From an uncultured bacterium (GTDB lineage: Bacteria > Hydrogenedentota > Hydrogenedentia > Hydrogenedentales > JAEUWI01), in NCBI GenBank assembly GCA_963977445.1, contig CAXBPH010000037.1, positions 1 to 37,094 on the forward strand: a stretch of DNA of 37,094 nt, written 5' to 3'. Below, in pieces: positions 1 through 28,690 of the stretch (position 1 is the stretch's first letter; every line of letters starts with the position of its first letter). Under the pieces are notes generated by a model that saw nothing but the letters and a program-made list of their open reading frames with translations, did not search any database and had not been told where the DNA came from. The translations under genes and the position numbers were made by a program.

Positions 1-1461
1 GCCCTGACCGCCGCCACCGAAGCCGCCGCCGCCCTGACCACCACCCTGGCCACCACGACCGCCACCCTGGCCACCACGACCGCCACCCTGGCCACCACCA
101 AGACCGGCAACGGAACCCAGAACGATTTTGAACAGGGTCTCTGCGCCTGCATTGCGCAGTTCATAGTAGCGCGTCTCTACTTCTTCAAACGATTCGCGCT
201 GAATAATTGAAGGCTTGCTGATGAACAAGAAGCCCGGCTCGATGGAGTAGGTAAGCCCAAGAGGACGGAGGATCGCTTTGAGCGCGTCACCCAAGGCGGC
301 GTCTTTCAGGTTAATATAGGGAATCATGCCATCGCTTTTGCCGCCATAGAATCCTTCTATGTCTTCGTTAGCGAAATTACTCGTCCCATTGACACCCAGA
401 CCTCCACCGAAGTTTGGCCCGCCGCCCTCTTCGAGGTCACGGGAGGACGTAGTACGACGGTTCTGACGACCACCACGGCCAGCTGGAGCTGCCCCTGGAA
501 AGGCACCGGGCGCACCGGGAAAGGCACCGGGTGCACCGGGAAATCCACCGGGAACACCACCGGCCGCATTTTCTTTCGGCTGGGGCTCAATGGCACGCTT
601 GTCAATAACAACATTCAGTTCGAAGCTATCTTGAATGAATTCCATCACGTCTTTGATGTGAATTTCTTCAAATTCGATATTAACCGGTGACTGGAGAGTC
701 TTTTCCATCACGGTCTCTTCGTGCTCTTCTTCAAACGTTTCTTCTATTTCTGGCACACGAAAGATATAGTTCTTGATGCCCTTCGGATCGGCACCCTCAG
801 GCAATTGCTTTGCCTGCTCGATGTATCGCCGAATACGCTCGCTGTCCGTCTCGACCTGACGCACTTCGTCGGTCATGTTCTCACGGCTCTGCGCCAGAGC
901 AGCAGTGTGCTGCCCCTCTTTGGCTTCCTTATTATCCGGATCCAACTGCAGCACGTGGGTATAGATCTCCAGTGCTTGCGTGTAGAAATGGTTTTCCAGA
1001 TAGAGCTTGGCATATTTGAGGTGTTCTTTGACGCGAACACGCTTCAACTCATCGGGAGACAGGCCAGGGGTTTCCCCGCCGCTACCGATGGACTCTGGAT
1101 CATAGGTTTCGAAGATTGGAACCGTACCAGGGTCACTGCCTACCGCTTCAAGCGCAATCTTCCCACGGCACTTCTCGAGAAATTTCTTCGCTTCCTCGTA
1201 GTCCGGCTGCAGCGCGAGCGCTCGATTGAACTCCGTTTGCGCCTCTCGATAGCGGTCGCTTTTATAAAAGTCGACCCCCGTTCGAAACGCTTCTTCCGCC
1301 GGGGAGGTTGTTACCGCCTGGGCCAGAACAATCTGTGCGTTGGGTGTTGACGTTACTGCCGTATCGCTGCGCTGCAGCCCTTGGGCAACCAAGGGCATGA
1401 TCAGCACCATGGGTGACAGCATCCAACCCCATGTGTTGGCCCGAATATAGCCGTTCTTCAT
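1..1461 (-). CDS. Probable secretin (PilQ/GspD family), N-terminal 487 aa; truncated at the left window edge
   Basis: Not in the ORF track. I translated it by hand from ATG 1461 (upstream GGAAGGAAG), and it stays open to position 1. It begins MKNGYIRANTWGWMLSPMVLIMPLVAQG (signal-like). It has two TPR-like segments (FRTGVDFYKSDRYREAQTEFNRALALQPDYEEAKKFL; AKLYLENHFYTQALEIYTHVLQLDPDNKEAKEG) and a split STN/N0-like segment (LQSPVNIEFEEIHIKDVMEFIQDSFELNVVID...INLKDAALGDALKAILRPLGLTYSIEPGFLFIS...ETRYYELR). It follows pilMN-O-P-like genes. The secretin core would lie outside the window. Confidence 0.75.
   Translation of the reverse strand, partial: MKNGYIRANTWGWMLSPMVLIMPLVAQGLQRSDTAVTSTPNAQIVLAQAVTTSPAEEAFRTGVDFYKSDRYREAQTEFNRALALQPDYEEAKKFLEKCRGKIALEAVGSDPGTVPIFETYDPESIGSGGETPGLSPDELKRVRVKEHLKYAKLYLENHFYTQALEIYTHVLQLDPDNKEAKEGQHTAALAQSRENMTDEVRQVETDSERIRRYIEQAKQLPEGADPKGIKNYIFRVPEIEETFEEEHEETVMEKTLQSPVNIEFEEIHIKDVMEFIQDSFELNVVIDKRAIEPQPKENAAGGVPGGFPGAPGAFPGAPGAFPGAAPAGRGGRQNRRTTSSRDLEEGGGPNFGGGLGVNGTSNFANEDIEGFYGGKSDGMIPYINLKDAALGDALKAILRPLGLTYSIEPGFLFISKPSIIQRESFEEVETRYYELRNAGAETLFKIVLGSVAGLGGGQGGGRGGQGGGRGGQGGGQGGGGFGGGGQG
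41..98. repeat. 21-bp coding tandem repeat (~2.8 copies) encoding GGRGGQG in the secretin-like ORF
   Basis: ccaccctggccaccacgaccg at 41-61 and 62-82, with a partial copy at 83-98. Confidence 0.9.
497..559. repeat. 21-bp coding tandem repeat (3 imperfect copies) encoding PGAPGAF-type heptapeptides
   Basis: ggaaaggcaccgggcgcaccg / ggaaaggcaccgggtgcaccg / ggaaatccaccgggaacacca. Confidence 0.85.
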
Positions 1462-1529
1462 TACCGTGTCTTCCTTCCGCTTTTTTCTCAGCACTATACC
1501 GTAATGCTCTGATTTGTCGCAAGCACTGG

Positions 1530-2015
1530 CTACTGTTCTATCTCAAGGGTAATTGATGTCGCAAATCGTTCTGCGTAAACATCAACCGTTTGGTCTTCCG
1601 GATTGATTTTCTCCAGGGTAAATTCTTCAAAACTCTCCCCTTCGTTATACCATTTGGGTGTCTTCGTTCTTAACTGAGCGCGCCATTTGGTGTCACTTAT
1701 TTTTTGTATCTGAATTAGATGAATGCCGACTTCTTCTGCGGTCAGTCGATTGCTTCCATCCAACTTGGCATCTGAATAGTAGGACAAGGGGTTCCGGCGA
1801 TACAATGACTCGTAGCTGCCCGGGGCATCACCTCGGCGTGGTTCGGGCAATTCTGCCTGGGGGGGGGTACCAAGGCGAGCCTGAACGGTAAGTTGTTCTA
1901 CTTTTGGATCAAAGATTTTGTAGATGTTGACCGCGAGAAAGCCCAGTAAAATTACCAAGACAAACCGTTCTTTCAACAGCCAAAGCCTTTTGAAAAATTT
2001 TTGTATCGTATCCAA
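1530..2015 (-). CDS. Membrane-anchored PilP/GspC(HR)-like protein, 161 aa
   Basis: Has an N-terminal hydrophobic segment, a Pro-rich linker, an RNPLSYY (RnPF-like) motif and a C-terminal beta-rich segment (WYNEGESFEEFTLEKINPEDQTVDV). It lies between the pilO-like gene and the secretin-like gene and has no lipobox Cys. Confidence 0.5.
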   Translation of the reverse strand: MDTIQKFFKRLWLLKERFVLVILLGFLAVNIYKIFDPKVEQLTVQARLGTPPQAELPEPRRGDAPGSYESLYRRNPLSYYSDAKLDGSNRLTAEEVGIHLIQIQKISDTKWRAQLRTKTPKWYNEGESFEEFTLEKINPEDQTVDVYAERFATSITLEIEQ

Positions 2016-2066
2016 TTCGCTAGACCTGCCTTATCTGGTGTCGTACGAAGTCGTTTGCCTGCTCGT

Positions 2067-3074
2067 CTATTTCATGAACAGGACGGTGTGCTTAAACCAG
2101 CGCCATCCTTTGGCTATCGTTCCTGGCTCATTGAGAGGCACCCGTCGGGGGTTGCCCTCTTCATCATCAATACTCAGATTGCTCTGTGCGACTTGCCCTA
2201 TGAGCTGGGTATTGTATACCGATTCTGCGTTGGGCGCTACATCTGTACCACCCGGGGTTTTCGTCTCGGTCGTGTGCGCACGCAACAAGTACATATCTAC
2301 CCGCAATCGGGGCTCGTAACGAGCGGCTACGTAAGGGTGTCGAATTTTCAAGCCTGCAAGGCTGTAATAAGAGTCTTCGCTTCGAAGTTTTTCAAGAAAT
2401 GTTACCAGTGGCTTCATTTCCATTGTAAAGGAAAGCCCAAGTCGGACATAGTCTACGCCCTTCCCGACAAATCCCGAGCTCCCGATGTCCAGCATGTCTA
2501 CGTGAAGAATTTGCTGGGCATCGTTGTTCATCAACAGCTCATACGCTGAGATACCGTAGCTCAACCGTTCCAGCTCTTCGTTTACCAATTTCGCCGAAAT
2601 ATCCAGGCCCTGCCAATCCTCTGCGTAGGTCACGTTCAACGTGCTTTGCAGATTCGTGGGAAATCCTTCGGGCATATTCTGATATACGGTCGCGCCGTAG
2701 GTCTTCTGCGCTTTCTCCCAAAGCCCCTTCACCAACTCCCGACTTTCGTCACCATACCAGAACTGGAGGATAAACACATCATCCGGCGGTGTTTCATGAA
2801 TGCGCCAGTCCCCATCGGTGAAGTAGGGCACGCGAACTTCAATGGCTTCATTCCAGGCTTCCACTTTGCCTTTGTGATCTACAATCACATCTTCAGGCGC
2901 GGCGTCACCAAAGGTTGTACGCAAATTGCCGTTGGTCGTATTCAGGGATGCCAGAAGCTCGCGATTTCTCGCGTATTCCTCTAGTTTCGCAGCGAAGTAG
3001 AATTGGTACACAAGAAAGACACCAAGAAAAACCAGGCCAAGGATACCAACATATATTAGTTTCTCTTTTTTCAT
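2067..3074 (-). CDS. PilO/GspM-like alignment protein, 335 aa
   Basis: N-terminal TM helix, then a helical region, then a PilO-like C-terminal pattern (LGLSFTMEMKPLVTFLEKLRSEDSYYSLAGLKI). Directly follows the pilM-pilN fusion. Confidence 0.55.
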   Translation of the reverse strand: MKKEKLIYVGILGLVFLGVFLVYQFYFAAKLEEYARNRELLASLNTTNGNLRTTFGDAAPEDVIVDHKGKVEAWNEAIEVRVPYFTDGDWRIHETPPDDVFILQFWYGDESRELVKGLWEKAQKTYGATVYQNMPEGFPTNLQSTLNVTYAEDWQGLDISAKLVNEELERLSYGISAYELLMNNDAQQILHVDMLDIGSSGFVGKGVDYVRLGLSFTMEMKPLVTFLEKLRSEDSYYSLAGLKIRHPYVAARYEPRLRVDMYLLRAHTTETKTPGGTDVAPNAESVYNTQLIGQVAQSNLSIDDEEGNPRRVPLNEPGTIAKGWRWFKHTVLFMK

Positions 3075-3079
3075 AGCGA

Positions 3080-5320
3080 CTACCGCCCCTCTTTCTTGTC
3101 TCTGAGGCTCTTACGGGAACCGCCAGCGGGTCTAGCTTGCCCTCCTCGCTTCGATCCTGGTTCAACAACGGGCAGAATGGGCGCTTTCGGTACCGCTTCG
3201 TAAAAGCTACCTTCAAACTCTATGCTGACTTCGAAAGAGTAAATACTGTTCTCTTCCGTTGGGACGTAATCTTGCCGACCGAGTGATTGAGCCGATTCCG
3301 GGTCAGTCCACGCGTCATTCAAAGTGCTGCGATCAACGCGCAACACACTGGCTTCACTAAAGTGGACCTTCTTCGCCTTCAGCGGCTCACCATTGGCCTG
3401 CGTGCGCTCCTGCTCTTTGAGCGTCTCTACGAAACGCTGAATGACATCCCCGGATTTGGCAAAGCCCGTGATCCGGACGCCATTGGGCCGGGAAAACTCC
3501 TGGAGGCCTGCGGCGGGACCTGATCGTGAGCTCCGACCACCAAAACCTTCGTCTTCTTCGTCATCTCGGTCTCTGCGACCGCCACCAAAGCCACCGCCAC
3601 CAAAACCACCACCGCTACTGCGGTAGCCGATGGTGCCACCGACCGGGCCGGACAACGCCGGAAATCCCGTGCTGAGAATGGCTTCTTCAAGGGCACCTGG
3701 TCCACCAGCACGCTGAATTGCAGAGGCGGGGGTTCCGCCACCCAATCGACCTAATTTCCCAAGGCCACCAAATAAACCCGCATCTTCATCGTCTTCGTCG
3801 ATACTTCGGACACTTCTCCGTGGAGCAATCACGGCCGGATCACCAATGCTGGAGGTTTCGACCGCCGAGAACCACATCTTTTCCGGGCGCGCGTCGTTTA
3901 CAAAGGCAAACTCTTCGAGCCAGAATTTACGGAAGAGTTTCTCGTCGTCGTAATCTTTGACCTTGGCCTTCCGCTGATCGATTTCAGCCTTTACCGCCCG
4001 AAACCGCGCAAGCTTGTCGGATTGGGGCACGGTCGTACTGCCAGGTTGTATTTTCAGAACGAGTTCCGGGTCGTATTTGCTGATTTGGGTCTTCACCCGT
4101 GCGACTTCCGCCTGAACGCGCTCATCTTCTTTCGCTTTCTGGGGAATAATACACGCCATGGTCAAAGCCAGGGACACAATAGAAAGCCCCCAATAGAATG
4201 CCGCCTCGCGACGTCGCGTCGCTTCCAGCACCCGCGGGGGAATCAGATTGATTTCAATGGCCACCTTTTGCTGGCAGCGTAGCGCCATACCCAGTGCCAC
4301 GCAGGCCTGCTCGGGCTGATCGCTTACTGCCTGACCATCCGGCGCCACCGCGAGTCCGGCCAGGGGCTGTGCGATACGAACCTCCAGGCCCAGTTGGCGC
4401 TGCATGTAGGGCACAATATTGCGGAGACAGGCACCGCCACCACAAAGGATGACCCGGTTGACCTGGCCGCCACCGGGCAAGGACCGGAAATAGGCAAAGG
4501 AGCGCATGACCTCAGAAACGAGGCGCTGGAGCACGTTGCCGATAACCTCACCACCCTGGCCATCCGTTGCGGGATCACCCGTCGGGGCAAAGCCACGCTC
4601 CCGCTTGACCCGTTCTGCATCGGTGAAATTCTGATTAAACGCCGAGCCAATGGCAAGGGTAATATCATTACCACCGATATTCAGTGGGCGGGTAAACCGA
4701 AACTGGCCTTCGCGCTCAATTACAATGTCGGTCGTGGCGGCACCAATGTCTATCAGGGCAACACATTCGCCAGATTCACCAAACTCACCCGTATGCTTCA
4801 GCCAGTTATAGGCCGCCAGGGGGTTTACATCGGCGATGTCGATGTTGCGCTTTGAAGAGTGCAGCACCTCCACCAGCTTGTCGACCACATCCACCTTGAT
4901 GGCCGCCATCATTACTTCATAGCCACCCGCTTCTGTGCGGCCGAGTATCTGATAGTCCATCGCGATCTGGTCCAACGAGAAAGGAATCTGTTGTTGGATT
5001 TCATAACGGACGATCTGACTGACTTTATATTCTGGCACGGGAGGCAGGGCACGGCTTCGTGTGAACACCGATTGACCCGGTACACCGAATATAGTCTTAC
5101 GGGTCCTGACCTTGGCCTCTTTCAGCAGATCAGCCAACGCTTTCTCGCGTATGGCCTTCCGCTCTGCCTCGTCCAACGCAGGATCGGAGTTATACTCCCG
5201 CTGGTAATATTTTACCAGCTGGTGGCCTGTTTTGGTTTGAGCAAGTTCAGCCAGACGTATGGCGCTCGCGCCAATGTCCAGGACCAATCGCTTCTTTTTT
5301 TCACCAGTCATTCCAGCCAT
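3080..5320 (-). CDS. pilM: Type IV pilus assembly protein PilM fused to a PilN-like TM/periplasmic domain (~746 aa)
   Basis: Actin-like ATPase motifs LDIGASAIR, IDIGAATT, NIGGNDIT and ILCGGGA, plus the PilM signature QQIPFSLDQIAMDYQIL. These run into the PilN N-terminal motif INLIP, a TM helix, a coiled coil and PilN-like WLEEFAFVNDARPEKMWF...ITGFAKS...FVETL. Start trimmed to ATG 5320. Confidence 0.9.
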   Translation of the reverse strand: MAGMTGEKKKRLVLDIGASAIRLAELAQTKTGHQLVKYYQREYNSDPALDEAERKAIREKALADLLKEAKVRTRKTIFGVPGQSVFTRSRALPPVPEYKVSQIVRYEIQQQIPFSLDQIAMDYQILGRTEAGGYEVMMAAIKVDVVDKLVEVLHSSKRNIDIADVNPLAAYNWLKHTGEFGESGECVALIDIGAATTDIVIEREGQFRFTRPLNIGGNDITLAIGSAFNQNFTDAERVKRERGFAPTGDPATDGQGGEVIGNVLQRLVSEVMRSFAYFRSLPGGGQVNRVILCGGGACLRNIVPYMQRQLGLEVRIAQPLAGLAVAPDGQAVSDQPEQACVALGMALRCQQKVAIEINLIPPRVLEATRRREAAFYWGLSIVSLALTMACIIPQKAKEDERVQAEVARVKTQISKYDPELVLKIQPGSTTVPQSDKLARFRAVKAEIDQRKAKVKDYDDEKLFRKFWLEEFAFVNDARPEKMWFSAVETSSIGDPAVIAPRRSVRSIDEDDEDAGLFGGLGKLGRLGGGTPASAIQRAGGPGALEEAILSTGFPALSGPVGGTIGYRSSGGGFGGGGFGGGRRDRDDEEDEGFGGRSSRSGPAAGLQEFSRPNGVRITGFAKSGDVIQRFVETLKEQERTQANGEPLKAKKVHFSEASVLRVDRSTLNDAWTDPESAQSLGRQDYVPTEENSIYSFEVSIEFEGSFYEAVPKAPILPVVEPGSKRGGQARPAGGSRKSLRDKKEGR

Positions 5321-5467
5321 CGTATACCTATGTTCCCATACCCCCAGACGCAACACGCCTTGTCCGTCGTCAAGGCCTTTTTACTGTGCTGAATCGGTCC
5401 AATCCGCTCCGAAGGTAAATAGTGTTAATATTCCTATTTCCCAATATAGCGTAAACCCTTGTGCGTT

Positions 5468-5496
5468 ATTGTAGTATACACTTAAATTCTTGTCAA
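5468..5496 (-). promoter_or_regulatory. sigma70-type promoter upstream of pilM
   Basis: Minus-strand TTGACA (5496-5491), 17-nt spacer, TACAAT (5473-5468), in an AT-rich intergenic region. Confidence 0.65.
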
Positions 5497-5530: not shown

Positions 5531-6931
5531 TCAGGGTTTCTGTAATGTCAGTGCACAACGAAAGCCATAATCAGTACGCACTGCAGATACCTTATCATAG
5601 TGACGCTTCGAACAACGAACGTCGAAACGTTCTGACCGGAAGCTCCCTCCCCGGAGCACCCGGAAGACCTGTCCATAATCCTTCGTCACAATCGTATTTC
5701 CAGGGTACGCCTGATACCAATCCTGCGTCCACTCGTATACATTGCCTGCCATATCCACGCAATCATAGAAGGATATGCCCTTGATGTTCGCTCCACGCCC
5801 CACCGGATAACTCACCCCCGCCGACGCCGTGGTGCACAAGCTCGAATCGAATTCGTTCCCCCACGGGTACTCCAGCCCCTTGGGGCCGCGCGCCGCCTTC
5901 TCCCACTCCAACTCCGTCGGCAACCGTTTTCCCACCGCCTGTGCGTAGTCTACGGCCTGCGTCCACGTAATACCAACTGCAGGAAAGTTTTCCCGGCCCT
6001 GTGCAAACTCATGCTCCAGAAAGACTTCCTTGAATTCTGCGTTAGTAACCTCGTATTTGTCAATGTAAAAGTCTGGAATATCAATCTCTGCCTGAGGCCG
6101 CTCGTCGGGAGCCCGCTCTGAACCCCGTATAAAGGGCCCTGCAGGCACAAACACCATCCCCGCAGGCACATTCCCTTCCCGCATCTCCAACTCCAGCCGA
6201 ATATCACTATTGGGCGTTACCGAGACCTTCTCCCCCTTCATTACATGACCCGCCGTGTGCACGTCCACAATATATTCCCCCGGGACCAGGGTAAATTCTT
6301 TCGGCGTCAATCCCGCCTGCTTCGATCCACTCAGCCAGATTTCCGCACCCGTCGGCCGCGACGTCACCAGCACCCTCCCCTCCTGGGGCTTCAACTGAAT
6401 CGACGTATTGAGGCCATATTGGTGATCGGCCCGCACCTCGAACGGTTCGGCAAAATAGGGATAGTAGTTTTCAAGGCGCACCTGGTAGCTATGCATGCCC
6501 ATGGGCAAGGGGAATTTTTTGATAGGCGTCTGGCCAATCCGTTCCCCGTCATCCAGGATAACATCCGCACCCGGTGGCGTCGACGTAACCGATATATAGC
6601 CCACCAGCCGCTCCATCTCAATGACGAATGATTGGGGCGGTCCCATCTCCAGGGTGATCTGATCAGACGTGTCGCGATAGCCCTCCCGCTTCAGCAGGAG
6701 TGTCACCGGACCCACCGGCAAACCTGTAATGGTTGCAGGGGTCGTCTCCTCAATCCCACCAGCTATCAACACGGTTGCTCCCGACTCCGGTGCGCTGTCG
6801 ATAGTCACGACAGTCATCTCCGACTCTCCACACCCACCCGACACCAGCCCGACCAGCAGAAGGATACACGGCATCACTATACGCGCAAAACGAACGCGCC
6901 CAGTCTCCACCTTGTCTTCCATCAGCCCCAT
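5531..6931 (-). CDS. PEGA-repeat / FGE-sulfatase (SUMF1)-fold protein, possibly a lipoprotein, 466 aa
   Basis: Hydrophobic leader ending LVSGGC. Three PEGA-like units (VTIDSAPESGATVLI, ISVTSTPPGADVILD, VLVTSRPTGAEIWLS). C-terminal FGE motifs MVFVPAGPF, FYIDKYEVTNAEF, KRLPTELEWEKAARG, YPWG, DMAGNVYEWT, RVLRGGSF and GFRC. Confidence 0.9.
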   Translation of the reverse strand: MGLMEDKVETGRVRFARIVMPCILLLVGLVSGGCGESEMTVVTIDSAPESGATVLIAGGIEETTPATITGLPVGPVTLLLKREGYRDTSDQITLEMGPPQSFVIEMERLVGYISVTSTPPGADVILDDGERIGQTPIKKFPLPMGMHSYQVRLENYYPYFAEPFEVRADHQYGLNTSIQLKPQEGRVLVTSRPTGAEIWLSGSKQAGLTPKEFTLVPGEYIVDVHTAGHVMKGEKVSVTPNSDIRLELEMREGNVPAGMVFVPAGPFIRGSERAPDERPQAEIDIPDFYIDKYEVTNAEFKEVFLEHEFAQGRENFPAVGITWTQAVDYAQAVGKRLPTELEWEKAARGPKGLEYPWGNEFDSSLCTTASAGVSYPVGRGANIKGISFYDCVDMAGNVYEWTQDWYQAYPGNTIVTKDYGQVFRVLRGGSFRSERFDVRCSKRHYDKVSAVRTDYGFRCALTLQKP

Positions 6932-18493: not shown

Positions 18494-18651
18494 TGCTACT
18501 TCACCTTTACCTGGCCGCCATCCGTGCGGCCCCATTCCCCAACACCGGAACCTGGACCCAGTGTCCACTTCCGTTACCGCGCGTGGGGTCCGTCCCACGT
18601 CCTCAAGCCTGTTTTTCTGAATTCTTTACCGTCAACGGTTGACCCAAAACA

Positions 18652-20241: not shown

Positions 20242-20248
20242 GGCCTCT

Positions 20249-20656: not shown

Positions 20657-20669
20657 GACGGAAACCTCA

Positions 20670-21694: not shown

Positions 21695-22573
21695 TTAATT
21701 GTAAAAACGCATGTAGGTTTGGTTCTTCTTATCCCAGTTGCAGATATCGTCACCACCACCCATCAACTCCGGCTCCTGACCACTGTCATAGTTGGTGATG
21801 GAGTTGTCGGTATAGCCCGGGTCATAGAAACGGAAGAGGGCCTGGCCCGACACGCCATTTTCGCCAAAGGACCAGATAAAAAGATCCTTGCGGTCATCGG
21901 CGGGGATACCAATTCGATCCAAGTCGGCACCTGTCTCGGGGTCAAACAGGGTGATAGCGTTCACCTCGGCAGGGTTTACCACATTGCCCAAAAGGCTGAG
22001 GATATCGCCATCTACTGCGGAAGTGTCGTCGCCCGGAAGGGTGGCAGCACCTACTTCCGGTGGCAGGTAAACACGGAAAGGTACCGGACCGTTACGGCTG
22101 GTGGACCAGGGGCCGGGGTAGAACTGGTACAGCTTGCCCCAAGGGTCGAAGGACAAGTCCGTCATGTAGGATGTGCCCAGGTTACGTATAACGTCTAGTT
22201 TAAACAGTGTGTCCGAGATACCCGTGTTTTGAGGGTCCGCCGCCGCGCGACCTTTGCGTAACAGGCGATACATGGCATCAGTATAGCGATCCGTAGCTGC
22301 CTGAAAGTCAATTGCGTCCCACGTGGTCATATCACCACCGAGTTCGGTTTCGAGAACGGTGAGGTCGAAAAAATCCGTTATATTGCTGCGACCTGCATCG
22401 GAGACCATCTTGGTAATGGCCAATTCGATATTTTGAATCTCCGACTGCGCCTGTACCGCCCGTCCTCGGCGAATCCATTTCTGGACATTGGGAATGGCGA
22501 TGGCCGCCAGGATGGAGATGATAGCCATCACCACCAGCAGTTCAATCAAGGTAAATCCGCGCTTCGTACGCAT
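21695..22573 (-). CDS. Probable major pilin, enlarged GspG type (292 aa)
   Basis: MRTKRG|FTLIELLVVMAIISILAAIAIP, with GspG-type motifs DPWGKLYQF, IWSFGENG and GDDICNW. Strong RBS GAGGAGG. Confidence 0.85.
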   Translation of the reverse strand: MRTKRGFTLIELLVVMAIISILAAIAIPNVQKWIRRGRAVQAQSEIQNIELAITKMVSDAGRSNITDFFDLTVLETELGGDMTTWDAIDFQAATDRYTDAMYRLLRKGRAAADPQNTGISDTLFKLDVIRNLGTSYMTDLSFDPWGKLYQFYPGPWSTSRNGPVPFRVYLPPEVGAATLPGDDTSAVDGDILSLLGNVVNPAEVNAITLFDPETGADLDRIGIPADDRKDLFIWSFGENGVSGQALFRFYDPGYTDNSITNYDSGQEPELMGGGDDICNWDKKNQTYMRFYN

Positions 22574-22654: not shown

Positions 22655-23893
22655 CTACGGTTTGTTGATTTCGTCGCCCAGAGTAAAGATGGGCAGATAT
22701 AAGGACACAACGATAAAACCAATGATACCGCCGAGCACCACAATGATTATGGGTTCCATCAGGGTCAACATGGCCTCTACTGCCACCTCCACTTCCTGAT
22801 CATAGATATCCGCCACCTTATTCAGCATGGAATCGAGCTGTCCCGTTTCCTCACCAACGTCGATCATATTCACCACCATGGGCGGGAACACTTTGGTCTC
22901 ATCCAGGGGGGCCGCAATGGTGTCGCCCTCCTTGATGCTGTCGTGGACTTTGTCCACGGCGTTCTGGATAACGCTGTTGCCGATGGTTTCCCGGGTAATC
23001 TTCAGGGCCTGCAAAATAGGCACGCCCGAGGTAATCAACGTACCCAGGGTTCGCGCAAAGCGGGCCACGCCAATTTTTGTTACCAAGTCACCCACCAGGG
23101 GCATTTTCAAACTCGCAATATCCGCTGCGCGTTTCACGAAGCGCAGCTTCAGTATCAACTTGAAGAAAATGATAGTGCCGTTGATACCCACCAGCACCAT
23201 CCACCACTTGTACACCATGAAGTCACCGGCAGCGATGAGGATCTGTGTCGGTTTGGGCAGGGTGCCGCCCAGTTCACCAAAGATATCGGCGAATACCGGG
23301 ACCACCTTGATCAGCAGGAAAGATACGATACCGGCTGCGATGAGCAACACGGCAACGGGATACACCATGGCACCTTTAACACGACGTTTCAGCGCTTCTC
23401 GACGTTCCATGAAGGTCGCCAGACGCTGCAACACCACTTCGAGAATACCACCGACTTCACCGGCCTTCACCATGTTGACGAAAAGGCGATCAAATTGCTT
23501 GGGGTGTTTGGCCAGGGCTTCCGAGAAGGTAGAACCCTGCTGAATATCCTGGGCACATTCCCGAAGAATATCGCGAAGCTTGCTCGGTTTCTGCTGCGCT
23601 ATCAACACGTTGATACTACGCAGCAGCGGAAGACCTGCATCGATAAGCGTGGAAAGCTGACGGGTCATCGTCACGATTTCCTTGGTCTTCACACCACCGA
23701 AATAGAGTTCGTCGATGCCTTTTTTCTCTTTACGCGCACGTTTTTCGTCGCGCTTGCTGGCTTCACGAACAGTGGTCGGATACAGACCCAGGGTACGCAC
23801 ATCATTGATAGCGAGTGCTTTGCTGTCCGAAGACACCACACCCGTGATGGTTTTACCATCTTTGTTCGTCGCCTTATAGAAATATTTGGGCAT
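22655..23893 (-). CDS. pilC: Type IV pilus inner-membrane platform protein PilC
   Basis: TRQLSTLIDAGLPL, FVNMVKAGEVGGILE, AMVYP, RFARTLGTLITSGVPIL, MIDVGEETGQLDSMLNKVADIY, LYLPIF. Confidence 0.95.
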   Translation of the reverse strand: MPKYFYKATNKDGKTITGVVSSDSKALAINDVRTLGLYPTTVREASKRDEKRARKEKKGIDELYFGGVKTKEIVTMTRQLSTLIDAGLPLLRSINVLIAQQKPSKLRDILRECAQDIQQGSTFSEALAKHPKQFDRLFVNMVKAGEVGGILEVVLQRLATFMERREALKRRVKGAMVYPVAVLLIAAGIVSFLLIKVVPVFADIFGELGGTLPKPTQILIAAGDFMVYKWWMVLVGINGTIIFFKLILKLRFVKRAADIASLKMPLVGDLVTKIGVARFARTLGTLITSGVPILQALKITRETIGNSVIQNAVDKVHDSIKEGDTIAAPLDETKVFPPMVVNMIDVGEETGQLDSMLNKVADIYDQEVEVAVEAMLTLMEPIIIVVLGGIIGFIVVSLYLPIFTLGDEINKP

Positions 23894-23907
23894 CTGTCGT
23901 TCCTCGA

Positions 23908-25653
23908 TTAATCTTCGTAACTATCGGTGTGATACAACACTTCAGCAGCCGTCGTAATTCCCTGAACGGCCTTGAGCAACCCGGCCTCACGCAGCGTAAT
24001 CATACCCAGGTGCTTCCGGCTGTAACGACGCAATTTCATGGACGTGGCACTTTCGAGCACCAAGTCACGCATGCCTTCATCTACGTTCAACATTTCATAC
24101 AGACCGGTACGACCGGAATAGCCGGTGTACTCGCAACTCTGACATCCGACCGCTTTGACCAATTGGAATTTGGGATCGTTACGCCAGGCGGTGGGGATGC
24201 CGAGCTTGTCCATTTCTTCTTCATCGGGCTTGTAGACTTCTTTACAGAAACGACAAACCTTCCGGCAGAGACGCTGGGCCAATACGGCCTCCAGGGACGC
24301 GGCGATGAGGAAGGGTTCCACATCCATATCCAGCAACCGGGTAATTGTTTCCGGTGCGCTGTTGGTGTGCAAGGTGCTCAGCACCAGGTGACCCGTCAAG
24401 GAGGCTTCCACCGCGATCTGGGCAGTCTCCAAATCTCGAATCTCACCAACCATGACGATGTCCGGATCCTGTCGCAAAATAGACCGCAAACAGCGGGCAA
24501 AGGTCAGGCCGACATCATCGTTTACCGCGCACTGAATCAGCTGGTCAATCTGAAATTCGACCGGGTCCTCGGTAGTGATGATTTTCACACCGGGGTCATT
24601 GAGCAAATTCAGACAGCCATAGAGGGTCGTTGTCTTACCCGAACCGGTGGGCCCGGTAACGAGCATGATGCCGTTGGGCTTCCGGATGGCGTTATTGATG
24701 TTTTCAAAAATATCCTGGGGAAAGCCCAGCGCGATCAGATCGTGTTTTACCGCATTCCGGTCAAGAATACGCATGACCACGCTCTCGCCATGGAGTACGG
24801 GCAGGGTAGATACACGAATATCGATAACCGTGTCGCCCACTTTGAGCTCGATTCGATTATCCTGAGGCATACGGCGTTCACTGATATCCATATTGGAAAT
24901 AACTTTAATACGGGAAATCAGGGCAATGGCCAGGTTACGGGGAGGATTCACGATCTCCTGAAGAATACCGTCCACGCGGATACGAATACGGAAATCATCT
25001 TCATAGATTTCAAAGTGAATATCCGACGCACGCTTCTGCACCGCTTCCAGGAAGACCAGGTTCACAATCTTGATGACTTCCGGCTGCTGAGCCAGTTCCA
25101 CCAGGTTGTCGGTGTCGCCCGTGACCTCCTGCATCCCCATTTCTTCCATGGAGAGTGCACCGGTACCCACCTTCTCCTGCAACTCCAGCAACATCTCATG
25201 GATCGAATCTCCCTCGAAGGAGTAGTTCGCTTTCCATGACGCCGCCACATCTTTTTCATTGCTGACGGCACCCATCACTTCCATGCCGGTGATCTGTTGC
25301 AGATCGTCCAGCACTTGAATGTTGAGCGGATCGGCCATGGCGACGATAAGCTTGTTGCCCGTCTTACGGATCGGCACCACGCTATAAAACTTCGCCACGT
25401 CCGCCGTTACGGTACGGATAACTTCTTCGGAAATCTTCACCTTGCTGAGGTCGATTCGCTCCATGCCCGATTGCACGCCGAGGGACTCAATAATGTCCTG
25501 CTCTTCACACAATCCCATGGTAACGAGAACACGACCGAGCATGTCCCCGGTCAATCGCTGACGCTGAAGCGCCTCATCCAATTGAAGGGGGCTGATTACA
25601 CCCTGTTCAACCAGAATGTCGCCCAGTTGTTTTTCGCGTGATCCTAGTGCCAT
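23908..25653 (-). CDS. pilB: Type IV pilus extension ATPase PilB with N-terminal MshEN-like domain (581 aa)
   Basis: ASDIHFE, Walker A GPTGSGKT, EDPVE, LRQDPDIVMVGEIRD, TGHLVLSTLHTN, Zn site CRFC...CQSC; N-terminal QLGDILVEQGVISPLQLDEALQRQ. Confidence 0.93.
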   Translation of the reverse strand: MALGSREKQLGDILVEQGVISPLQLDEALQRQRLTGDMLGRVLVTMGLCEEQDIIESLGVQSGMERIDLSKVKISEEVIRTVTADVAKFYSVVPIRKTGNKLIVAMADPLNIQVLDDLQQITGMEVMGAVSNEKDVAASWKANYSFEGDSIHEMLLELQEKVGTGALSMEEMGMQEVTGDTDNLVELAQQPEVIKIVNLVFLEAVQKRASDIHFEIYEDDFRIRIRVDGILQEIVNPPRNLAIALISRIKVISNMDISERRMPQDNRIELKVGDTVIDIRVSTLPVLHGESVVMRILDRNAVKHDLIALGFPQDIFENINNAIRKPNGIMLVTGPTGSGKTTTLYGCLNLLNDPGVKIITTEDPVEFQIDQLIQCAVNDDVGLTFARCLRSILRQDPDIVMVGEIRDLETAQIAVEASLTGHLVLSTLHTNSAPETITRLLDMDVEPFLIAASLEAVLAQRLCRKVCRFCKEVYKPDEEEMDKLGIPTAWRNDPKFQLVKAVGCQSCEYTGYSGRTGLYEMLNVDEGMRDLVLESATSMKLRRYSRKHLGMITLREAGLLKAVQGITTAAEVLYHTDSYED

Positions 25654-25659
25654 AAGCGT

Positions 25660-26763
25660 TTAGTTGGCCGCCGGTAAAGGCGCCGGCCCTCCTTCGAGCC
25701 CGAGTGCCCGGGCATTGGCTTCAAATTCGTCGCGGAACTGCGCACGACTTGCGCAGTCCTCGTAGCTACAGATGCCCTTACGATAGAGGGCCAGGAGATG
25801 CTCGTCCAACAGATTCATACCATACTTATGTCCGGTCTGAATGGCCGAGGTGATACGATACGTCTTATTTTCACGAATCAGATTCTGAATCGCCGACGTG
25901 GTGATCATGATTTCATAGGCCGCCACACGACCAAAGCCACTTTTCCGGGGCACCAGGGCCTGCGAAATTACGGCCTTCAGGTTACCGGCAAGCTGGGTAC
26001 GAATCTGTTCCTGCTGGTTCGTGGGAAAGGCGTCAACCAGACGGTCAACCGTACGTACGGCACCGGTGGTGTGCAACGTTCCAAATACCAGGTGACCCGT
26101 TTCCGCTGCGGACACCGCCGCACCGATCGTTTCCAGGTCGCGCATTTCGCCCACCAGAATCACGTCCGGATCCATTCGGAGCGAACGTCGCAGGGCTTCG
26201 GCGAAGGTGGGCACGTCTACACCCACTTCACGCTGGGTGATGATACTTTTCTTGTGATAGTGATAGTACTCGATGGGATCCTCGATCGTAATTATATGGT
26301 GATCGAAGGTCATGTTCATCCAGTCAATCATGGTCGCCAGACTGGTGGATTTACCCGAACCCGTAGGACCCGTTACAAGGATCATACCGCGGGGCTGCGT
26401 AATCACTTCCTTCAGGGAAAGGGGTAAGCCGATCTCTTCGAAGGTCATCATGTTTCGGGGAATTAATCGGAGCACCATGCCCACATAGCCACGCTGCTTG
26501 AAGACGGCGACACGAAACCGGGCCACGTCTTCAAAGGCGAAACCAAAGTCGGTGCCACCCACTTCCTGCAGTTCCTGCTGGTTATCCACCGAGGCGATGC
26601 TTTTCATCAAGCTCTCGGTGTCTTCACTTGTGAGTGGATTATCACCAAAAAACTGCATGTGCCCGTGCACACGGCCCGCCGGTGGATCATCCACGGCGAT
26701 ATGCAGATCGGACCCATCACGGTCAATCAACATGCGCAACAAGCTAACCATTTCATATGCCAT
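25660..26763 (-). CDS. pilT: Type IV pilus retraction ATPase PilT (367 aa)
   Basis: GSDLHI, GPTGSGKST, HIITIEDPIE, QREVG, LRMDPDVILVGEMRD, AETGHLVFGTLHT and the PilT motif variant AIQNLIRE. Confidence 0.96.
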   Translation of the reverse strand: MAYEMVSLLRMLIDRDGSDLHIAVDDPPAGRVHGHMQFFGDNPLTSEDTESLMKSIASVDNQQELQEVGGTDFGFAFEDVARFRVAVFKQRGYVGMVLRLIPRNMMTFEEIGLPLSLKEVITQPRGMILVTGPTGSGKSTSLATMIDWMNMTFDHHIITIEDPIEYYHYHKKSIITQREVGVDVPTFAEALRRSLRMDPDVILVGEMRDLETIGAAVSAAETGHLVFGTLHTTGAVRTVDRLVDAFPTNQQEQIRTQLAGNLKAVISQALVPRKSGFGRVAAYEIMITTSAIQNLIRENKTYRITSAIQTGHKYGMNLLDEHLLALYRKGICSYEDCASRAQFRDEFEANARALGLEGGPAPLPAAN

Positions 26764-26798
26764 AACGTGTTATCTCCCAAGAATGAACCGACTGTAGG

Positions 26799-28631
26799 TC
26801 AGTCCATTATCGCCTTAACAAGTGGTTCGTCGAGACGGGTCCGACGATTTACTTCTTCCAGAGTTGTAATACCATTTTGCGCCTTTTGCCAGGCGTCTTC
26901 ACGCATCGTTACCATGCCTTCTTCCCGGGCCGCACGTTTGATGGCGGTCGCCGATTCCTTATTCATCAGCATGTCACGGATACGGTCCGTCGTAATCATT
27001 AATTCGTAGGCGCCCAATCGGCCTGCATGGCCCGTGTCGTTGCAGTTGTCGCAACCGGCACCGTGATAGAGCTCTATCTTGTCTACGTCCACAGGAATAC
27101 CCAGGCGGATCAATTCCTGCTCGTCGGGTTCACAGGACTCTTTACAGTTGGTGCAGATGGTACGCACCAGACGCTGTGCCAGAATCGCGCGCACACCGGA
27201 GGCCACCAGGAAGGATTTAATCCCGATATCCACCAGACGGGTGAAAGAACTCGCCGTGTCGTTGGTGTGCAACGTACTGAACACCAGGTGACCGGTCAGG
27301 GCCGCTTTGATAGCGATTTCCGCCGTCTCCGCGTCTCGAATTTCACCAACCATCACGATGTTCGGATCCTGTCGCATAATGGCACGCAGGGCCCGTGTAA
27401 AGTCGAATTTAATTTCGTGGTTGATCTGCACCTGGTTGATACCCGCCAGCTGATATTCCACCGGGTCTTCTACGGTGATGATCTTGGTGTCGGGCTTGTT
27501 GAGGGTGTGCAACGAAGCATAGAGCGAAGTCGTCTTGCCCGAACCCGTCGGTCCTGTCACGAGAATAACCCCCGTGCTCAGGCCCATGAGCTGCTCCCAG
27601 GTGCGCTGATGCTCCGGACAAAATCCCAACTGACCCAGACCGAGGAGCAAGCCACTCTTATCCAGGATACGCATAACCACACTCTCGCCATAGAAGGCCG
27701 GCAGGGCGCTCACACGCAGATCGACGATTTTGCCGTTCATGTTCATCTTGATACGACCGTCCTGGGGGACGCGACGTTCGGTGATATCCATGCCCGACAT
27801 GATCTTCAGTCGGGAAATAATAGAGGCTTGTGCCCGCTTGGGCGGGGGGGGCATGAGCTGCATGACGCCATCAACCCGGTATCGCACTTTTACGTCGGCC
27901 CGGGAGGGTTCCACGTGTATATCACTCGCCCGCAGGCGGAAGGCTTCGAGGATCAGCTGATTCACATAACGCATGACGGGACTATCGTCGCCGTCATCGT
28001 CATCGCCGCCCCCAAGAGCGTCCGCGTCCATGGCATCAATGCTGATGCTGCTCAGGCTGATATCGCTCTGACTCATGCTGCCCATGCTGCTCATGGAAGA
28101 ATCGAGGGAGCTCAGATTGGACATGGTGCTGAGGGTGCTCATGCTGCTCGCAGAGCTCACGGAAGACAACATGGTTTCCACCGTGTTGTCTTGAAGGCCA
28201 TAGCATTTGGCCAAAGCCACCGACACTTCCTCTACCGTGCTCAAAACCGGTTCTACATTCCGATCAAGGAGACGACGGAGGTTGTCGAGGTTATTAATAT
28301 TGGTCGGGTCGGCCGTCGCGATGACAATGGTGTTGCCCCGCTCTTCGATGGGGATTACCCGATAGAGCGTAGCAATACTACCGTCGATCAGTCCGCGAAT
28401 ACGCTCAGGGATCTCCCGATCACTCAACTTCACAATCGGGATGCCCAGCTGATCGGCCAGGCCTTCCGTAATGTGATGCTTACTGATGTAATTCAGACGG
28501 ACGAGGATCTCACCTATCTTCCGGTGGGCCATTGTCGTCTGTTGTTTGTGGATGGCTTCGTCAAGCTGTTGTTGCTTGATAATGCCCTTTTCCACCAAAC
28601 GTTGCCCAAATAAGGAGTACGTGGTCTGCAT
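26799..28631 (-). CDS. pilB: Second PilB-family extension ATPase with MshEN-like domain and Ser-rich linker (~610 aa)
   Basis: ASDIHVEP, PQDGRI, GPTGSGKT, EDPVE, RQDPNIVMVGEIRD, TGHLVFSTLHTN, CTNC...CDNC. Start trimmed to ATG 28631 (RBS GAGAGGT; the promoter position argues against the GTG at 28655). Confidence 0.92.
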   Translation of the reverse strand: MQTTYSLFGQRLVEKGIIKQQQLDEAIHKQQTTMAHRKIGEILVRLNYISKHHITEGLADQLGIPIVKLSDREIPERIRGLIDGSIATLYRVIPIEERGNTIVIATADPTNINNLDNLRRLLDRNVEPVLSTVEEVSVALAKCYGLQDNTVETMLSSVSSASSMSTLSTMSNLSSLDSSMSSMGSMSQSDISLSSISIDAMDADALGGGDDDDGDDSPVMRYVNQLILEAFRLRASDIHVEPSRADVKVRYRVDGVMQLMPPPPKRAQASIISRLKIMSGMDITERRVPQDGRIKMNMNGKIVDLRVSALPAFYGESVVMRILDKSGLLLGLGQLGFCPEHQRTWEQLMGLSTGVILVTGPTGSGKTTSLYASLHTLNKPDTKIITVEDPVEYQLAGINQVQINHEIKFDFTRALRAIMRQDPNIVMVGEIRDAETAEIAIKAALTGHLVFSTLHTNDTASSFTRLVDIGIKSFLVASGVRAILAQRLVRTICTNCKESCEPDEQELIRLGIPVDVDKIELYHGAGCDNCNDTGHAGRLGAYELMITTDRIRDMLMNKESATAIKRAAREEGMVTMREDAWQKAQNGITTLEEVNRRTRLDEPLVKAIMD

Positions 28632-28661
28632 AGTGACACCTCTCGCTTTTGACACACTGTA

Positions 28662-28690
28662 ACTCTACCAAAGAAGGTGTAGTTTGTCAA
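28662..28690 (-). promoter_or_regulatory. sigma70-type promoter of the second (pilus) cluster
   Basis: Minus-strand TTGACA (28690-28685), 17-nt spacer ending in TGG (extended -10), TAGAGT (28667-28662); about 30 nt upstream of the pilB ATG. Confidence 0.65.

Follow-up and report, generated by a model that had tools for sequence, protein, structure and literature searches.

The window (the whole stretch of 37,094 nt analyzed here) contains, at 1..28690, a cluster of 15 genes which, with a probability of about 0.65, encodes a self-contained, two-motor, retractile T4aP-like filament, a lineage-specific variant with the adhesin within its K subunit. All genes lie on the minus strand with intergenic gaps of -17 to 191 bp, in agreement with the co-oriented cluster reported at this location by an earlier sequence-only reading. 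In the direction of transcription, they are as follows.

26799..28655, minus strand: ATPase1, an extension ATPase resembling PilB, with a Ser-rich linker and a c-di-GMP motif of the MshEN type (PF00437, T2SSE, E 1e-132)
25660..26763, minus strand: PilT retraction ATPase (TIGR01420, 458.3 bits, cut-off 319.1)
23908..25653, minus strand: ATPase2, the other extension ATPase resembling PilB, likewise with a c-di-GMP motif (MshEN) (PF00437, T2SSE, E 9e-136)
22655..23893, minus strand: PilC/GspF-type platform protein (PF00482, T2SSF, E 5e-67)
21695..22573, minus strand: pil1, presumed major pilin in the G position, 292 aa (class III signal GFTLIE)
20670..21614, minus strand: pil2, minor pilin in the H position, assignment ambiguous (N_methyl, E 4e-6)
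20249..20758, minus strand: pil3, GspI/PilV-like minor pilin (hhalign with GspI 97.5%, 118 columns, full length)
18652..20265, minus strand: pil4, GspJ/PilW-like minor pilin, 537 aa (hhalign with GspJ 97.0%, 105 columns)
10391..18598, minus strand: giant K-type tip pilin (ORF of 2,735 aa; 2,700 aa in the protein database)
7062..10199, minus strand: secreted protein with a beta-helix, encoded directly after K at the place of PilY1/MshQ (Beta_helix, E 3.5e-9)
5531..6931, minus strand: lipoprotein with three PEGA domains and an FGE-sulfatase fold (PF03781, E 3e-46; PEGA, E 1e-28)
3080..5356, minus strand: PilM fused to a TM helix, a coiled coil and a periplasmic domain of the GspL/PilN/PilO fold (PilM_2, E 3e-43)
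2067..3074, minus strand: bitopic O-like protein similar to Amuc_1100, PilO and GspM (a lead from an Atlas model)
1530..2015, minus strand: small P-like beta domain with a TM anchor, possibly of the GspC-HR/PilP type (a lead from an Atlas model)
1..1494, minus strand: TPR-secretin, N-terminal 498 aa, truncated by the contig end (TPR_2, E 2e-8)

Judged by its sequences, this is a complete retractable pilus-like gene set conserved across the phylum. Ten of the 14 relatives sampled show the whole order, as does a genome from another class of the same phylum (G001); the gene set is kept as a unit. A canonical T2SS, left out of the sequence-only reading, is situated directly upstream and co-oriented (29056-37094); it carries its own C-D-E-...-M set and passes its own E, F, G and D cut-offs. 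The genome also holds separate PilM-?-PilO-?-PilQ and PilB-PilT-PilS-PilR genes. Therefore, the cluster is an additional system, as the claim of a distinct machine implied; the searched literature yielded no description of it, and within that literature the word "undescribed" holds.

The ORFs of the cluster were searched against Pfam and NCBIfam. Of the equivalog cut-offs of the curated T4aP and T2SS models of NCBIfam, only those for PilT and PilM were reached, while no cluster protein reached the ones for PilB, PilC, PilQ and the pilins. PilT is present within the cluster, as had been noted, in all sampled relatives having motors (13/13) and in G001; it is 77-94% identical among the relatives and always lies between the two PilB-like genes. 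The latter score higher with the PilB model TIGR02538 than with GspE (617 vs 574 bits for ATPase1, both below the cut-off; 614 vs 566 bits for ATPase2), and with NF053729 they yield 51.5 bits (ATPase1, exceeding the cut-off of 38) and 62.8 bits (ATPase2). Among the sequences of solved structures, ATPase1 is closest to Geobacter PilB (476 bits, compared to 382 for GspE), and ATPase2 to Myxococcus PilB (492 bits, compared to 422 for Vibrio GspE). The Walker A and B motifs, the His box and four Cys residues are readable in ATPase1. In the ATPase tree, ATPase2 branches as a clade of its own, apart from both ATPase1 and GspE (support 100/100), and neither motor groups with the canonical PilB of this genome or with GspE, the deep nodes being open. 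By these comparisons, the two PilB-like ATPases are old and separately conserved, each with an MshEN N-terminus of the predicted c-di-GMP type. The platform protein scores 430 bits with the Myxococcus-type PilC and 417.7 bits with GspF, under the GspF cut-off of 424.

Two phylogenetically distinct PilB homologues in one T4aP are also described, in the available part of PMC8213720, for Acinetobacter baylyi (PilB and TfpB). Unlike TfpB, the cluster ATPases remain far from the cut-off of NF053534 (460 and 432 bits, cut-off 850), and, as compared with that part of the paper, their genes flank pilT within one operon.

Five prepilin-type N-termini are recognizable by sequence, arranged G-(H)-I-J-K as in the canonical T2SS, and in the hhalign matrix of pilins by pseudopilins of the neighbouring T2SS the best partners lie on the diagonal. 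The first four prepilins match N_methyl with E from 3e-10 to 4e-6 (Pfam), and each of them matches the neighbouring GspK at 4.1% or less. Pil1, presumably the major pilin given its gene position and N-terminus, has the neighbouring GspG as the best profile partner (99.6%, E 7e-24). Still, this match is confined to the N-terminal 55-94 columns, where the solved T4a pilins fit better than solved GspG; hence, of the "GspG-type major subunit" the N-terminal resemblance stands. Cys residues are few in pil1 (0-1 in 12 of 14 sequences, its own and those of 13 relatives). Pil2 matches GspG and GspH about equally (97.2% and 96.9%). Pil3, whose true start is probably the ATG 34 codons inside the ORF, scores 35.9 bits with PilV and 30.2 bits with GspI, both below the cut-offs, and pil4 weakly matches the N-termini of Verru_Chthon C, HpsC and GspJ.

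Of 135 genomes from the phylum, 117 encode the giant K-type subunit, whose presence in the cluster is supported. Its family matches are limited to sub-threshold ones, LTD (25 bits) and the GspK N-terminus (22.7 bits). In the hhalign comparison its N-terminus matches the neighbouring GspK at 94.3%, and G, H, I and J at 44.5% or less. Thus, the N-terminal part of the "true GspK motifs" claim is retained, while the remainder amounts to two short motifs (GRINVNT and TRSDV..I) colinear with GspK at low probability. The N-terminus (RG|AAL) lacks Glu+5 in this gene and in all 14 relatives (12 by pattern search, two by eye); since the same is characteristic of the K-family tip pilins, the giant would sit at the very tip. 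Ten loops of the DxDxDG type are present. The model of the C-terminal part is poor (pLDDT 43.6), the C-terminal beta-hairpin being its sole confident element, and the C-terminal module is specific to this family, with just 256 representatives in a set of 1.84 billion. Profiles of the two ends gave no match to the solved pilin sequences.

According to the available part of PMC13533445, K-family tip pilins, GspK and Caulobacter CpaL (~600 aa), carry in cis the terminal beta-strand and, in some cases, an adhesin as well. The giant resembles them in the absence of Glu+5, in being the last gene of I-J-K and, as far as the model and that part of the paper allow comparison, in a large predicted insertion between the N-terminal pilin segment and the C-terminal beta-hairpin. 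In contrast to the middle region of CpaL as described there, the insertion is roughly five times longer (~2,300 aa), and, in contrast to both GspK and CpaL, the C-terminal module belongs to this family alone, its pilin fold being predicted.

The beta-helix protein starts with a readable signal-like segment and is poorly conserved (24-30% identity among relatives, length from 1,033 to about 2,200 aa). Its last ~90 aa are conserved, and all 13 aligned sequences, as well as that of G001, end with a QP[IV]K motif. The signal-end Cys of the PEGA/FGE lipoprotein is kept in all 11 sequences (its own and 10 relatives); the nearest solved sequences are CalU17 (90 bits), FGE (~69) and PorK (35).

The PilM fusion, the Amuc_1100/PilO-like protein, the small TM-anchored protein and the TPR-secretin form an envelope set whose order is conserved across the phylum. 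In the PilM fusion, the GspL architecture is built on a PilM-type cytoplasmic domain, with M. xanthus PilM as the best solved match (106 bits). The two small membrane proteins had been labelled "PilO-like" and "PilP/GspC-like", and these labels are retained as leads at the level of fold, while support from sequence families was not obtained. In particular, the O-like protein matches no Pfam, NCBIfam or PDB sequence, and its profile does not match the solved Amuc_1100 sequence, while its Atlas model aligns with the Amuc_1100 cluster (TM 0.57 over 252 residues) and with the PilO/T2SSM_b clusters (TM 0.33-0.49). The P-like protein has no family match in Pfam or NCBIfam and no profile match to solved GspC or PilP sequences, its model aligning with T2SSC clusters at TM 0.38-0.46. 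Its description as a membrane-anchored non-lipoprotein is confirmed by the conserved N-terminal TM segment and the lack of a lipobox. The C-terminal part of the secretin of this genome is situated on another contig (C231, 57-1508). The orthologue from a closed genome of the same genus (G069) has 1,075 aa and a secretin domain (PF00263, E 1.6e-33), scoring below all cut-offs with GspD (139 bits), PilQ (137), Amuc_1098 (131.5) and MshL (122).

The envelope set may be compared with Amuc_1098-Amuc_1102 of Akkermansia muciniphila, termed a "pili-like" cluster in the available part of PMC5332112. Apart from the Amuc_1098 score and the Amuc_1100-like model, the similarities are the best NCBIfam match of the PilM fusion (Amuc_1101 family, 262.6 bits, profile positions 4-479 of 608) and the gene order (M-like, O-like, small protein, secretin). 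However, these comparisons were made via family models and structure clusters, the scores are far under the equivalog cut-offs (650 and 750), and here the envelope genes adjoin their motors and pilins.

Compared to the Myxococcus and Geobacter T4aP, the cluster shares the PilB-PilT-...-PilC order, the best solved matches (M. xanthus), a PilT above the family cut-off, the order of minor pilins and a large secreted protein after K. It differs in having two extension ATPases, PilN fused to PilM, a longer major pilin mostly devoid of Cys, a far larger K, a secretin with TPRs and the additional PEGA/FGE lipoprotein, and in lacking the PilY1 domain, AMIN and any family match to PilO, PilP or PilQ. 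Besides the pseudopilin order, the T2SS traits are the GspL-like alignment protein and the P-like protein, TM-anchored like GspC. On the other hand, the cluster contains PilT, yields no PDZ or GspC match, reaches none of the GspE, F, G, K and D cut-offs, and has PilM_2 rather than T2SSL as the cytoplasmic domain.

Hence, the term "T2SS/T4aP hybrid" of the sequence-only reading was an overstatement. The order H-I-J-K is common to T4aP and T2SS (available part of PMC13533445), the ATPases, PilC and PilM score higher with T4aP than with T2SS models, and solved PilB and PilM surpass their T2SS counterparts as matches to the ATPases and the PilM fusion. A true hybrid, representing a new class of type IV filaments outside T4aP, T2SS and MSH and common to planctomycete and other little-studied phyla, is in our estimate unlikely. 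Such a class would be consistent with the PilB, GspE, GspF, PilC, PilQ, GspD and MshL cut-offs not being reached here, while the adjacent T2SS passes its own, with the tied secretin scores, with ATPase1, ATPase2 and GspE being three separate old clades, and with the mixed architecture of the alignment protein; yet each part has a T4aP counterpart by function and gene position, and the top-scoring models and solved structures are those of T4aP.

In this genome, as in G001 and eight of the 14 relatives sampled, the T2SS adjoins the cluster in the same orientation, an arrangement bearing on two other explanations. According to one of them, which seems improbable, a short periplasmic endopilus exports the beta-helix protein (perhaps also the giant) and PilT resets the piston; the GspG-like pil1, the G-H-I-J-K order and the variable secreted protein always encoded directly after K fit this scheme as well. 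To our knowledge, no described T2SS has PilT, which here belongs to the cluster in G001 and in all 13 sampled relatives having motors; moreover, a canonical T2SS is encoded next door, and a piston capped by a 2,700-aa protein would obstruct the channel. Sharing of parts between the T2SS and the cluster in one composite machine is highly improbable, as the two possess separate ATPases, platforms, pseudopilins, L/M-type proteins and secretins, and three relatives (G061, G006, G010) have no T2SS within 16 kb or more upstream of the cluster. Moreover, a 400-bp gap with promoter-like sites precedes ATPase1, the site counts being no higher than in shuffled sequence.

Under the preferred reading, a retractile T4aP-like filament, the only prepilin peptidase that the genome encodes would process all five pilins, and pil3 (I), pil4 (J), pil2 and the giant K would form the initiation complex. 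The acidic insertion of about 2,300 residues between the N-terminal pilin segment of K and its C-terminal beta-hairpin, in which Ca-loop-like motifs and an LTD-like segment occur, may serve as an in-cis adhesin or capture module of the tip, by analogy an extreme form of CpaL/GspK. Pil1 would polymerise under the tip, powered by the two extension motors, and PilT would retract the filament with the bound material. The beta-helix protein may be a second tip partner docking by its C-terminus, or cargo, and the PEGA/FGE lipoprotein, an envelope accessory. A difficulty for the tip placement is that a subunit of ~290 kDa would have to pass the secretin.

The proposed resemblance to the Verru_Chthon cassette A-D (TIGR02596-02600) holds for the four-pilin set, the very large K-like A member, the matching positions and weak N-terminal matches, while the scores (17-35 bits, cut-offs 51-332) reflect the N-terminal helices only. 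A supplementary table of PMC10632474, a paper whose main text does not mention pili, lists Plim_0407 (PulF), Plim_0408 and Plim_0410 (PulE/PilB) of Planctopirus limnophila. The named homologues of the cluster proteins are from Candidatus Hydrogenedentota.

The candidate type IV filament locus proposed by the sequence-only reading is a real, complete and conserved cluster. The window is the complete 37-kb contig C37 of a 7.1-Mb genome (464 contigs, 94% complete), and all genes discussed here lie on the minus strand. Gene calls, together with Pfam and NCBIfam searches, have borne out a co-oriented cluster of 15 closely packed genes within the interval claimed by that reading (1..28690), which omitted the canonical type II secretion system (T2SS) located directly upstream.

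Features of the window in gene order (coordinates, strand, description)
29056-37094 (-): canonical T2SS (GspE C-terminus, F, G, H, I, J, K, L, ORF in the M position)
28655 to 1 (-): cluster of 15 genes, comprising the following
(-): ATPase1, PilB-like (T2SSE, E 1e-132)
(-): PilT (TIGR01420, 458.3 bits, cut-off 319.1)
(-): ATPase2, second PilB-like (T2SSE, E 9e-136)
(-): platform protein, PilC/GspF (Pfam, E 5e-67)
(-): pil1-pil4, four proteins with GFTLxE prepilin signals, at the G, H, I and J positions
10391-18598 (-): giant K-type prepilin-like protein, 2,735-aa ORF (2,700 aa as called in the protein database)
(-): beta-helix protein, 1,045 aa
(-): PEGA/FGE protein, three PEGA repeats and an FGE-sulfatase domain
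3080-5356 (-): PilM fusion, 758 aa (PilM_2, PF11104, E 3e-43, profile positions 2-339 of 340)
(-): O-like and P-like ORFs, 335 and 161 aa, no family
(-): TPR protein, running off the contig end

All 24 genes of the T2SS and the cluster are colinear in two closed genomes, one from the same genus (G069) and one from another family (G034). In these genomes the final gene of the cluster encodes a 1,075-aa TPR-secretin (PF00263, E 1.6e-33); the next genes are those for KdtA and for an ABC transporter, which places the end of the cluster at the secretin. By orthology, the secretin end of C37 continues on contig C231 (secretin C-terminus, then KdtA), and the other end on contigs C358 and C115 (GspE N-terminus, GspD, GspC and two upstream proteins); exact k-mer overlaps between contig ends were not found, and the joins rest on orthology. 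The kdtA gene (Kdo transferase) follows the secretin in eight relatives, namely G069 (L052:10435-11715), six other sampled relatives, and G001 from another class of the same phylum, and thus this flank is conserved as much as the cluster. Promoter and terminator scans of the locus yielded site counts no higher than in shuffled sequence.

The synteny survey suggested by the sequence-only reading covered 14 relatives from eight families and has confirmed that the gene set is conserved as a unit. Ten of the 14 have the genes from ATPase1 through to the secretin in one row, single genes being below tblastn detection in G048, G091 and G081. The cluster is cut by contig ends in two relatives (G061 and G055) and rearranged in the two from family f3, with the PilM fusion on another contig in G010 and the giant gene alone within the 40 kb examined in G022. 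The T2SS lies directly upstream of the cluster in 8/14 relatives, in this genome and in G001, and is absent from at least 16 kb upstream in G061, G006 and G010; in G007 and G075 the upstream sequence is too short to judge adjacency. In the 14 relatives the motors and the platform share 61-94% identity with the proteins of this genome, and the PilM fusion 47-68%; the four pilins and the giant reach about 26-57% and the beta-helix protein 24-30%, a gradient that would be expected for surface-exposed parts.

The cluster is an extra system, present besides the T2SS and separate pilus genes of the same genome. The adjacent T2SS exceeds the curated cut-offs for GspE (680.8 bits in the G069 orthologue, cut-off 630), GspF (447.7, cut-off 424), GspG (100.4, cut-off 88.85) and GspD (414.9 in the orthologue, cut-off 351). 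The genes further upstream in G069 and G034 encode a protein with a TIG domain and one of 780 aa, then GspC (T2SSC and PDZ domains) and GspD. The TIG-domain protein and the 780-aa protein (weak metalloprotease-motif match) are always encoded upstream of GspC and could be substrates of the T2SS. The ORF in the GspH position (33639-34865) is 408 aa long with the prepilin motif at residue 136, hence its true start is probably much later. The same genome contains 19 T2SSE-family matches, 23 T2SSF-domain matches on nine contigs, seven secretin matches and one prepilin peptidase, which would process the pilins of the cluster. Other contigs carry the rows PilM-?-PilO(PF04350)-?-secretin and PilB-PilT-PilS-like-sigma54 regulator.

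The top family of both extension ATPases is PilB (TIGR02538; 617 bits for ATPase1, 614 for ATPase2), yet both are below its cut-off of 675.65, and both also miss the GspE cut-off of 630 (574 and 566 bits). In comparison with solved structures both lean to the type IVa pilus (T4aP) side: ATPase2 scores 492 bits with M. xanthus PilB versus 422 with Vibrio GspE, and ATPase1 scores 476 with Geobacter PilB versus 382 with GspE. In A. baylyi, two distinct PilB homologues, PilB and TfpB, serve one T4aP (PMC8213720); according to NCBIfam, neither ATPase here is of the TfpB type. The MshE-type c-di-GMP motif is above cut-off in ATPase1, ATPase2 and the T2SS GspE orthologue. In the ATPase tree (37 rows, no named reference sequences) ATPase1, ATPase2 and GspE form three separate clades with support 99-100, so the two motors are old and do not stem from a recent duplication within the cluster; the deep nodes lack resolution for the mutual order of the three clades and their relation to other paralogues. 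PilT sits between the two extension ATPases and is found within the cluster in 13/13 sampled relatives having the motors, as well as in G001. The obligatory co-inheritance of two extension motors is of interest for the question why some pili need two. The platform protein scores 430 bits with Myxococcus-type PilC and 417.7 bits with GspF, the latter below the cut-off of 424.

Profiles of the four pilins (up to 14 orthologues each) were compared with those of the neighbouring T2SS pseudopilins by hhalign. The best partner is GspG for pil1 (99.6%, E 7e-24; next GspH, E 3e-11), GspI for pil3 (97.5%, 118 columns, full length) and GspJ for pil4 (97.0%, 105 columns); pil2 is ambiguous (GspG 97.2%, GspH 96.9%), and none of the four is above 4.1% with the GspK profile. 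The likeness of pil1 to GspG is limited to the N-terminal 55-94 columns of the profiles, and in BLASTP against the neighbour's GspG the N-terminal 52 residues align and no more; with the GspG equivalog pil1 scores 43.4 bits, below 88.85. Solved T4a pilins match the pil1 N-terminus with E 2e-8 to 1e-4 versus 0.015 for solved GspG. PilA major pilins typically have a disulfide-bonded C-terminal loop. This loop is lacking in pil1, since 12 of 14 sequences (its own and 13 relatives) contain 0-1 Cys.

The giant protein (~290 kDa) combines a prepilin-type N-terminus, RG|AAL(I/V)..., which lacks Glu+5 both here and in 14/14 relatives, with a gene position after the I and J homologues, and in these features it belongs with the K family. 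The missing Glu+5 is described as an invariable mark of PilK/GspK-family tip pilins (PMC13533445). Its N-terminus matches the GspK profile at 94.3% and the G, H, I and J profiles at 44.5% or less (hhalign). Two short motifs towards the C-terminus are colinear with the neighbour's GspK yet weak: GRINVNT, aligned with GRINPNTA (probability 25.7%), and TRSDV..I, aligned with the region of the penultimate strand (probability 2%). The GspK equivalog NF037980 gives 22.7 bits, below 130. When the giant was divided into seven pieces and searched in Pfam with E up to 1, only LTD was returned, sub-threshold, and no GspK alpha-domain (PF21687). The middle ~2,300 residues contain 14% Asp+Glu and 10 DxDxDG-type loops; no internal repeats were found by self-BLAST. 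For the last 360 aa, AF2 gave a model of pLDDT 43.6 that is confident in the terminal hairpin only (residues 306-348), and PDB profile searches with the N-terminus and the C-terminus returned nothing relevant.

From 1.84 billion proteins, the profile of the giant's C-terminal region retrieved only 256 representatives, mostly with lengths of 2,000-3,400 aa. The word-index search yielded 131 homologues, and all 13 that are named by organism come from Candidatus Hydrogenedentes/-ota. Of 135 genomes of the phylum, 117 encode the giant, among them 80 of the 86 of high quality. G001 was counted as a genome without it, but a weaker homologue of 1,809 aa lies there at the same position. According to a recently proposed rule, K-family pilins receive, or carry in cis, a strand and an adhesin licensing filament assembly; a tip pilin of 2,700 residues would stretch this rule.

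According to PMC13533445, PilY1 or MshQ is encoded after pilX or mshP. The beta-helix gene holds the same position, after K, and encodes a large protein non-homologous to PilY1; PilY1 itself (PF05567) has no match in the cluster or the genome, with the control matched in 0/14 genomes. The length of the beta-helix protein ranges from 1,033 to about 2,200 aa across relatives. The conserved part of this fast-evolving protein is its C-terminal domain (window 7062-7454, last 130 aa; alignment A6), in particular the last ~90 residues with motifs FLN, DRLGDDG and D.TPA.V.F.V. All 13 aligned sequences end in (D/E)xQP(I/V)K.., 3-8 residues from the stop, and the same (D/E)xQP(I/V)K ending is present in the G001 counterpart, which is otherwise unalignable. 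This terminus may be a PilY1-like docking strand, by which the protein might join the filament. The very end has conservation 0.61 versus 0.72 in the best window of the domain, and for that reason such a strand is offered as a hypothesis and not as a result. The word-index search with the C-terminal domain found the query alone.

Among the envelope proteins, the PilM fusion exceeds the cut-off of the T4aP PilM family (TIGR01175, 159.2 bits, cut-off 133), and the best solved match of its PilM domain is M. xanthus PilM (106 bits). In the AF2 model of residues 372-758 (pLDDT 62.7, from 11 sequences) a TM helix leads into a long coiled coil, after which a Gly-rich disordered segment precedes a domain rich in beta-alpha-beta elements, a predicted GspL architecture on a PilM-type cytoplasmic domain. 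Foldseek with this model returned no match at E 0.001 or better, with EpsM, PulM and PilN lower in the list. The best-scoring curated family for the fusion is Amuc_1101 (262.6 bits, below 650). The Atlas model of the O-like protein resembles the Amuc_1100 cluster (TM 0.57 over 252 residues, model versus model) and also PilO/T2SSM_b clusters; the solved Amuc_1100 sequence was not matched in PDB profile and single-sequence searches, which gave nothing relevant. The P-like protein is TM-anchored and lacks a lipobox; T2SSC clusters in the Atlas are weak leads for it (TM 0.38-0.46), with no T2SSC or PDZ match and nothing relevant in the PDB profile search. Pfam detects no PilO or PilP family in the cluster. 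In hhalign, the O-like protein versus GspM/PilO, the C-terminus of the PilM fusion versus GspL-C/PilO, and the P-like protein versus GspC/PilP-position protein all score at most 3.9%, while the fusion C-terminus reaches 36.4% with canonical PilN; the low scores are uninformative, since the controls (GspM versus PilO 9.5%, GspL-C versus PilN 0.2%) are equally blind. The secretin, analyzed as the full-length G069 orthologue, scores 139 bits with GspD (TIGR02517, below 351), 137 with PilQ (TIGR02515, below 284.35), 131.5 with Amuc_1098 (below 750) and 122 with MshL, and contains TPRs instead of an AMIN domain. The PEGA/FGE protein is probably a lipoprotein, because the Cys at the signal end is kept in 11/11 sequences (its own and 10 relatives); its sequence is closer to those of CalU17 and FGE than to that of PorK.

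As regards the class of the system, an ordinary T4aP would account for PilT within the cluster, for the PilM family match and for the lean of the motors. Several of its other marks are missing: pil1 does not qualify as a PilA-type major pilin, the secretin is not of the PilQ type, and in place of separate PilN, PilO and lipoprotein PilP there is an N-like part fused to PilM. A T2SS would fit the partners of pil1, pil3 and pil4. It is characterized by the absence of a dedicated retraction ATPase, by GspK with its alpha-domain and by the GspD secretin with GspC bearing HR and PDZ, and the cluster departs from it in each of these. Membership in a Verru_Chthon cassette (TIGR02596, 02598, 02599 and 02600 tested) is not supported: Verru_Chthon D scores 29.2 bits for pil1 and 18.5 for pil2 (cut-off 70), and Verru_Chthon B, C and A score 17.9, 34.6 and 17.1 bits versus cut-offs of 51.4, 256.5 and 332.3. 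Nor can the cluster be assigned to the type of the Akkermansia muciniphila "pili-like" genes Amuc_1098-Amuc_1102 by the Amuc_1101 and Amuc_1098 families. No closer relative of the Akkermansia Amuc_1098-1101 set was found than this envelope half.

A more far-reaching reading, at a probability of roughly 0.3, is that the type IV filament superfamily has a separate branch common to Hydrogenedentota, Planctomycetota, Verrucomicrobiota and allies, and that this cluster, where motors, pilins and the envelope half share one locus, is its first complete example. Its marks would be two co-inherited motors flanking PilT, the PilM-GspL-type fusion, an Amuc_1100-type partner, the TPR-secretin, a giant K tip with an adhesin in cis, and a second large protein docking by a conserved C-terminal strand. 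A separate branch, if true, would also explain where the Akkermansia Amuc_1098-1102 proteins belong. The cluster is unstudied: no published description was found in the literature searched on Hydrogenedentes/Hydrogenedentota pili, type IV filaments, Verru_Chthon, and LTD with pilin, and the search on Amuc_1100 with PilO gave nothing relevant. A possible parallel, Planctopirus Plim_0407 (PulF), Plim_0408 and Plim_0410 (both PulE), is tabulated in PMC10632474, whose main text does not mention pili.

In our main reading, which is more likely than not, the machine would be a T4aP-like retractile filament, in which two c-di-GMP-responsive extension motors and PilT work on one platform, and the PilM-GspL-type fusion with the O- and P-like partners connects the platform to the TPR-secretin. 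In the H-I-J-K initiation complex, the K subunit would itself carry, in cis, a very large module for adhesion or capture, probably placed at the tip. The locus unites motors, pilins and envelope parts. It provides an uncultured, widespread phylum with a defined surface machine whose parts can be tested.

Several minor features were also observed. Long Gly-rich low-complexity linkers (GGQGGGRGG-type runs) are present in the PilM fusion (residues ~505-620) and in the secretin (window 1-200), and a Ser-rich linker in ATPase1 (window 27990-28150). The G001 secretin is represented by two ORFs of 547 and 493 aa, which overlap and join in a Gly-rich run (L097-L099, reverse strand; positions 41902-44951 of the oriented stretch); a frameshift, misassembly of the repeat or a genuine split of the gene may be the cause. 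Two MshEN fusions were found near canonical pilus genes: a 793-aa one with a DnaA-type ATPase domain, just upstream of canonical PilB (C28:24183-26564 = L058:13183-15564), and a 514-aa one with HDOD, near canonical PilM (C97:15050-16594 = L056:11050-12594).
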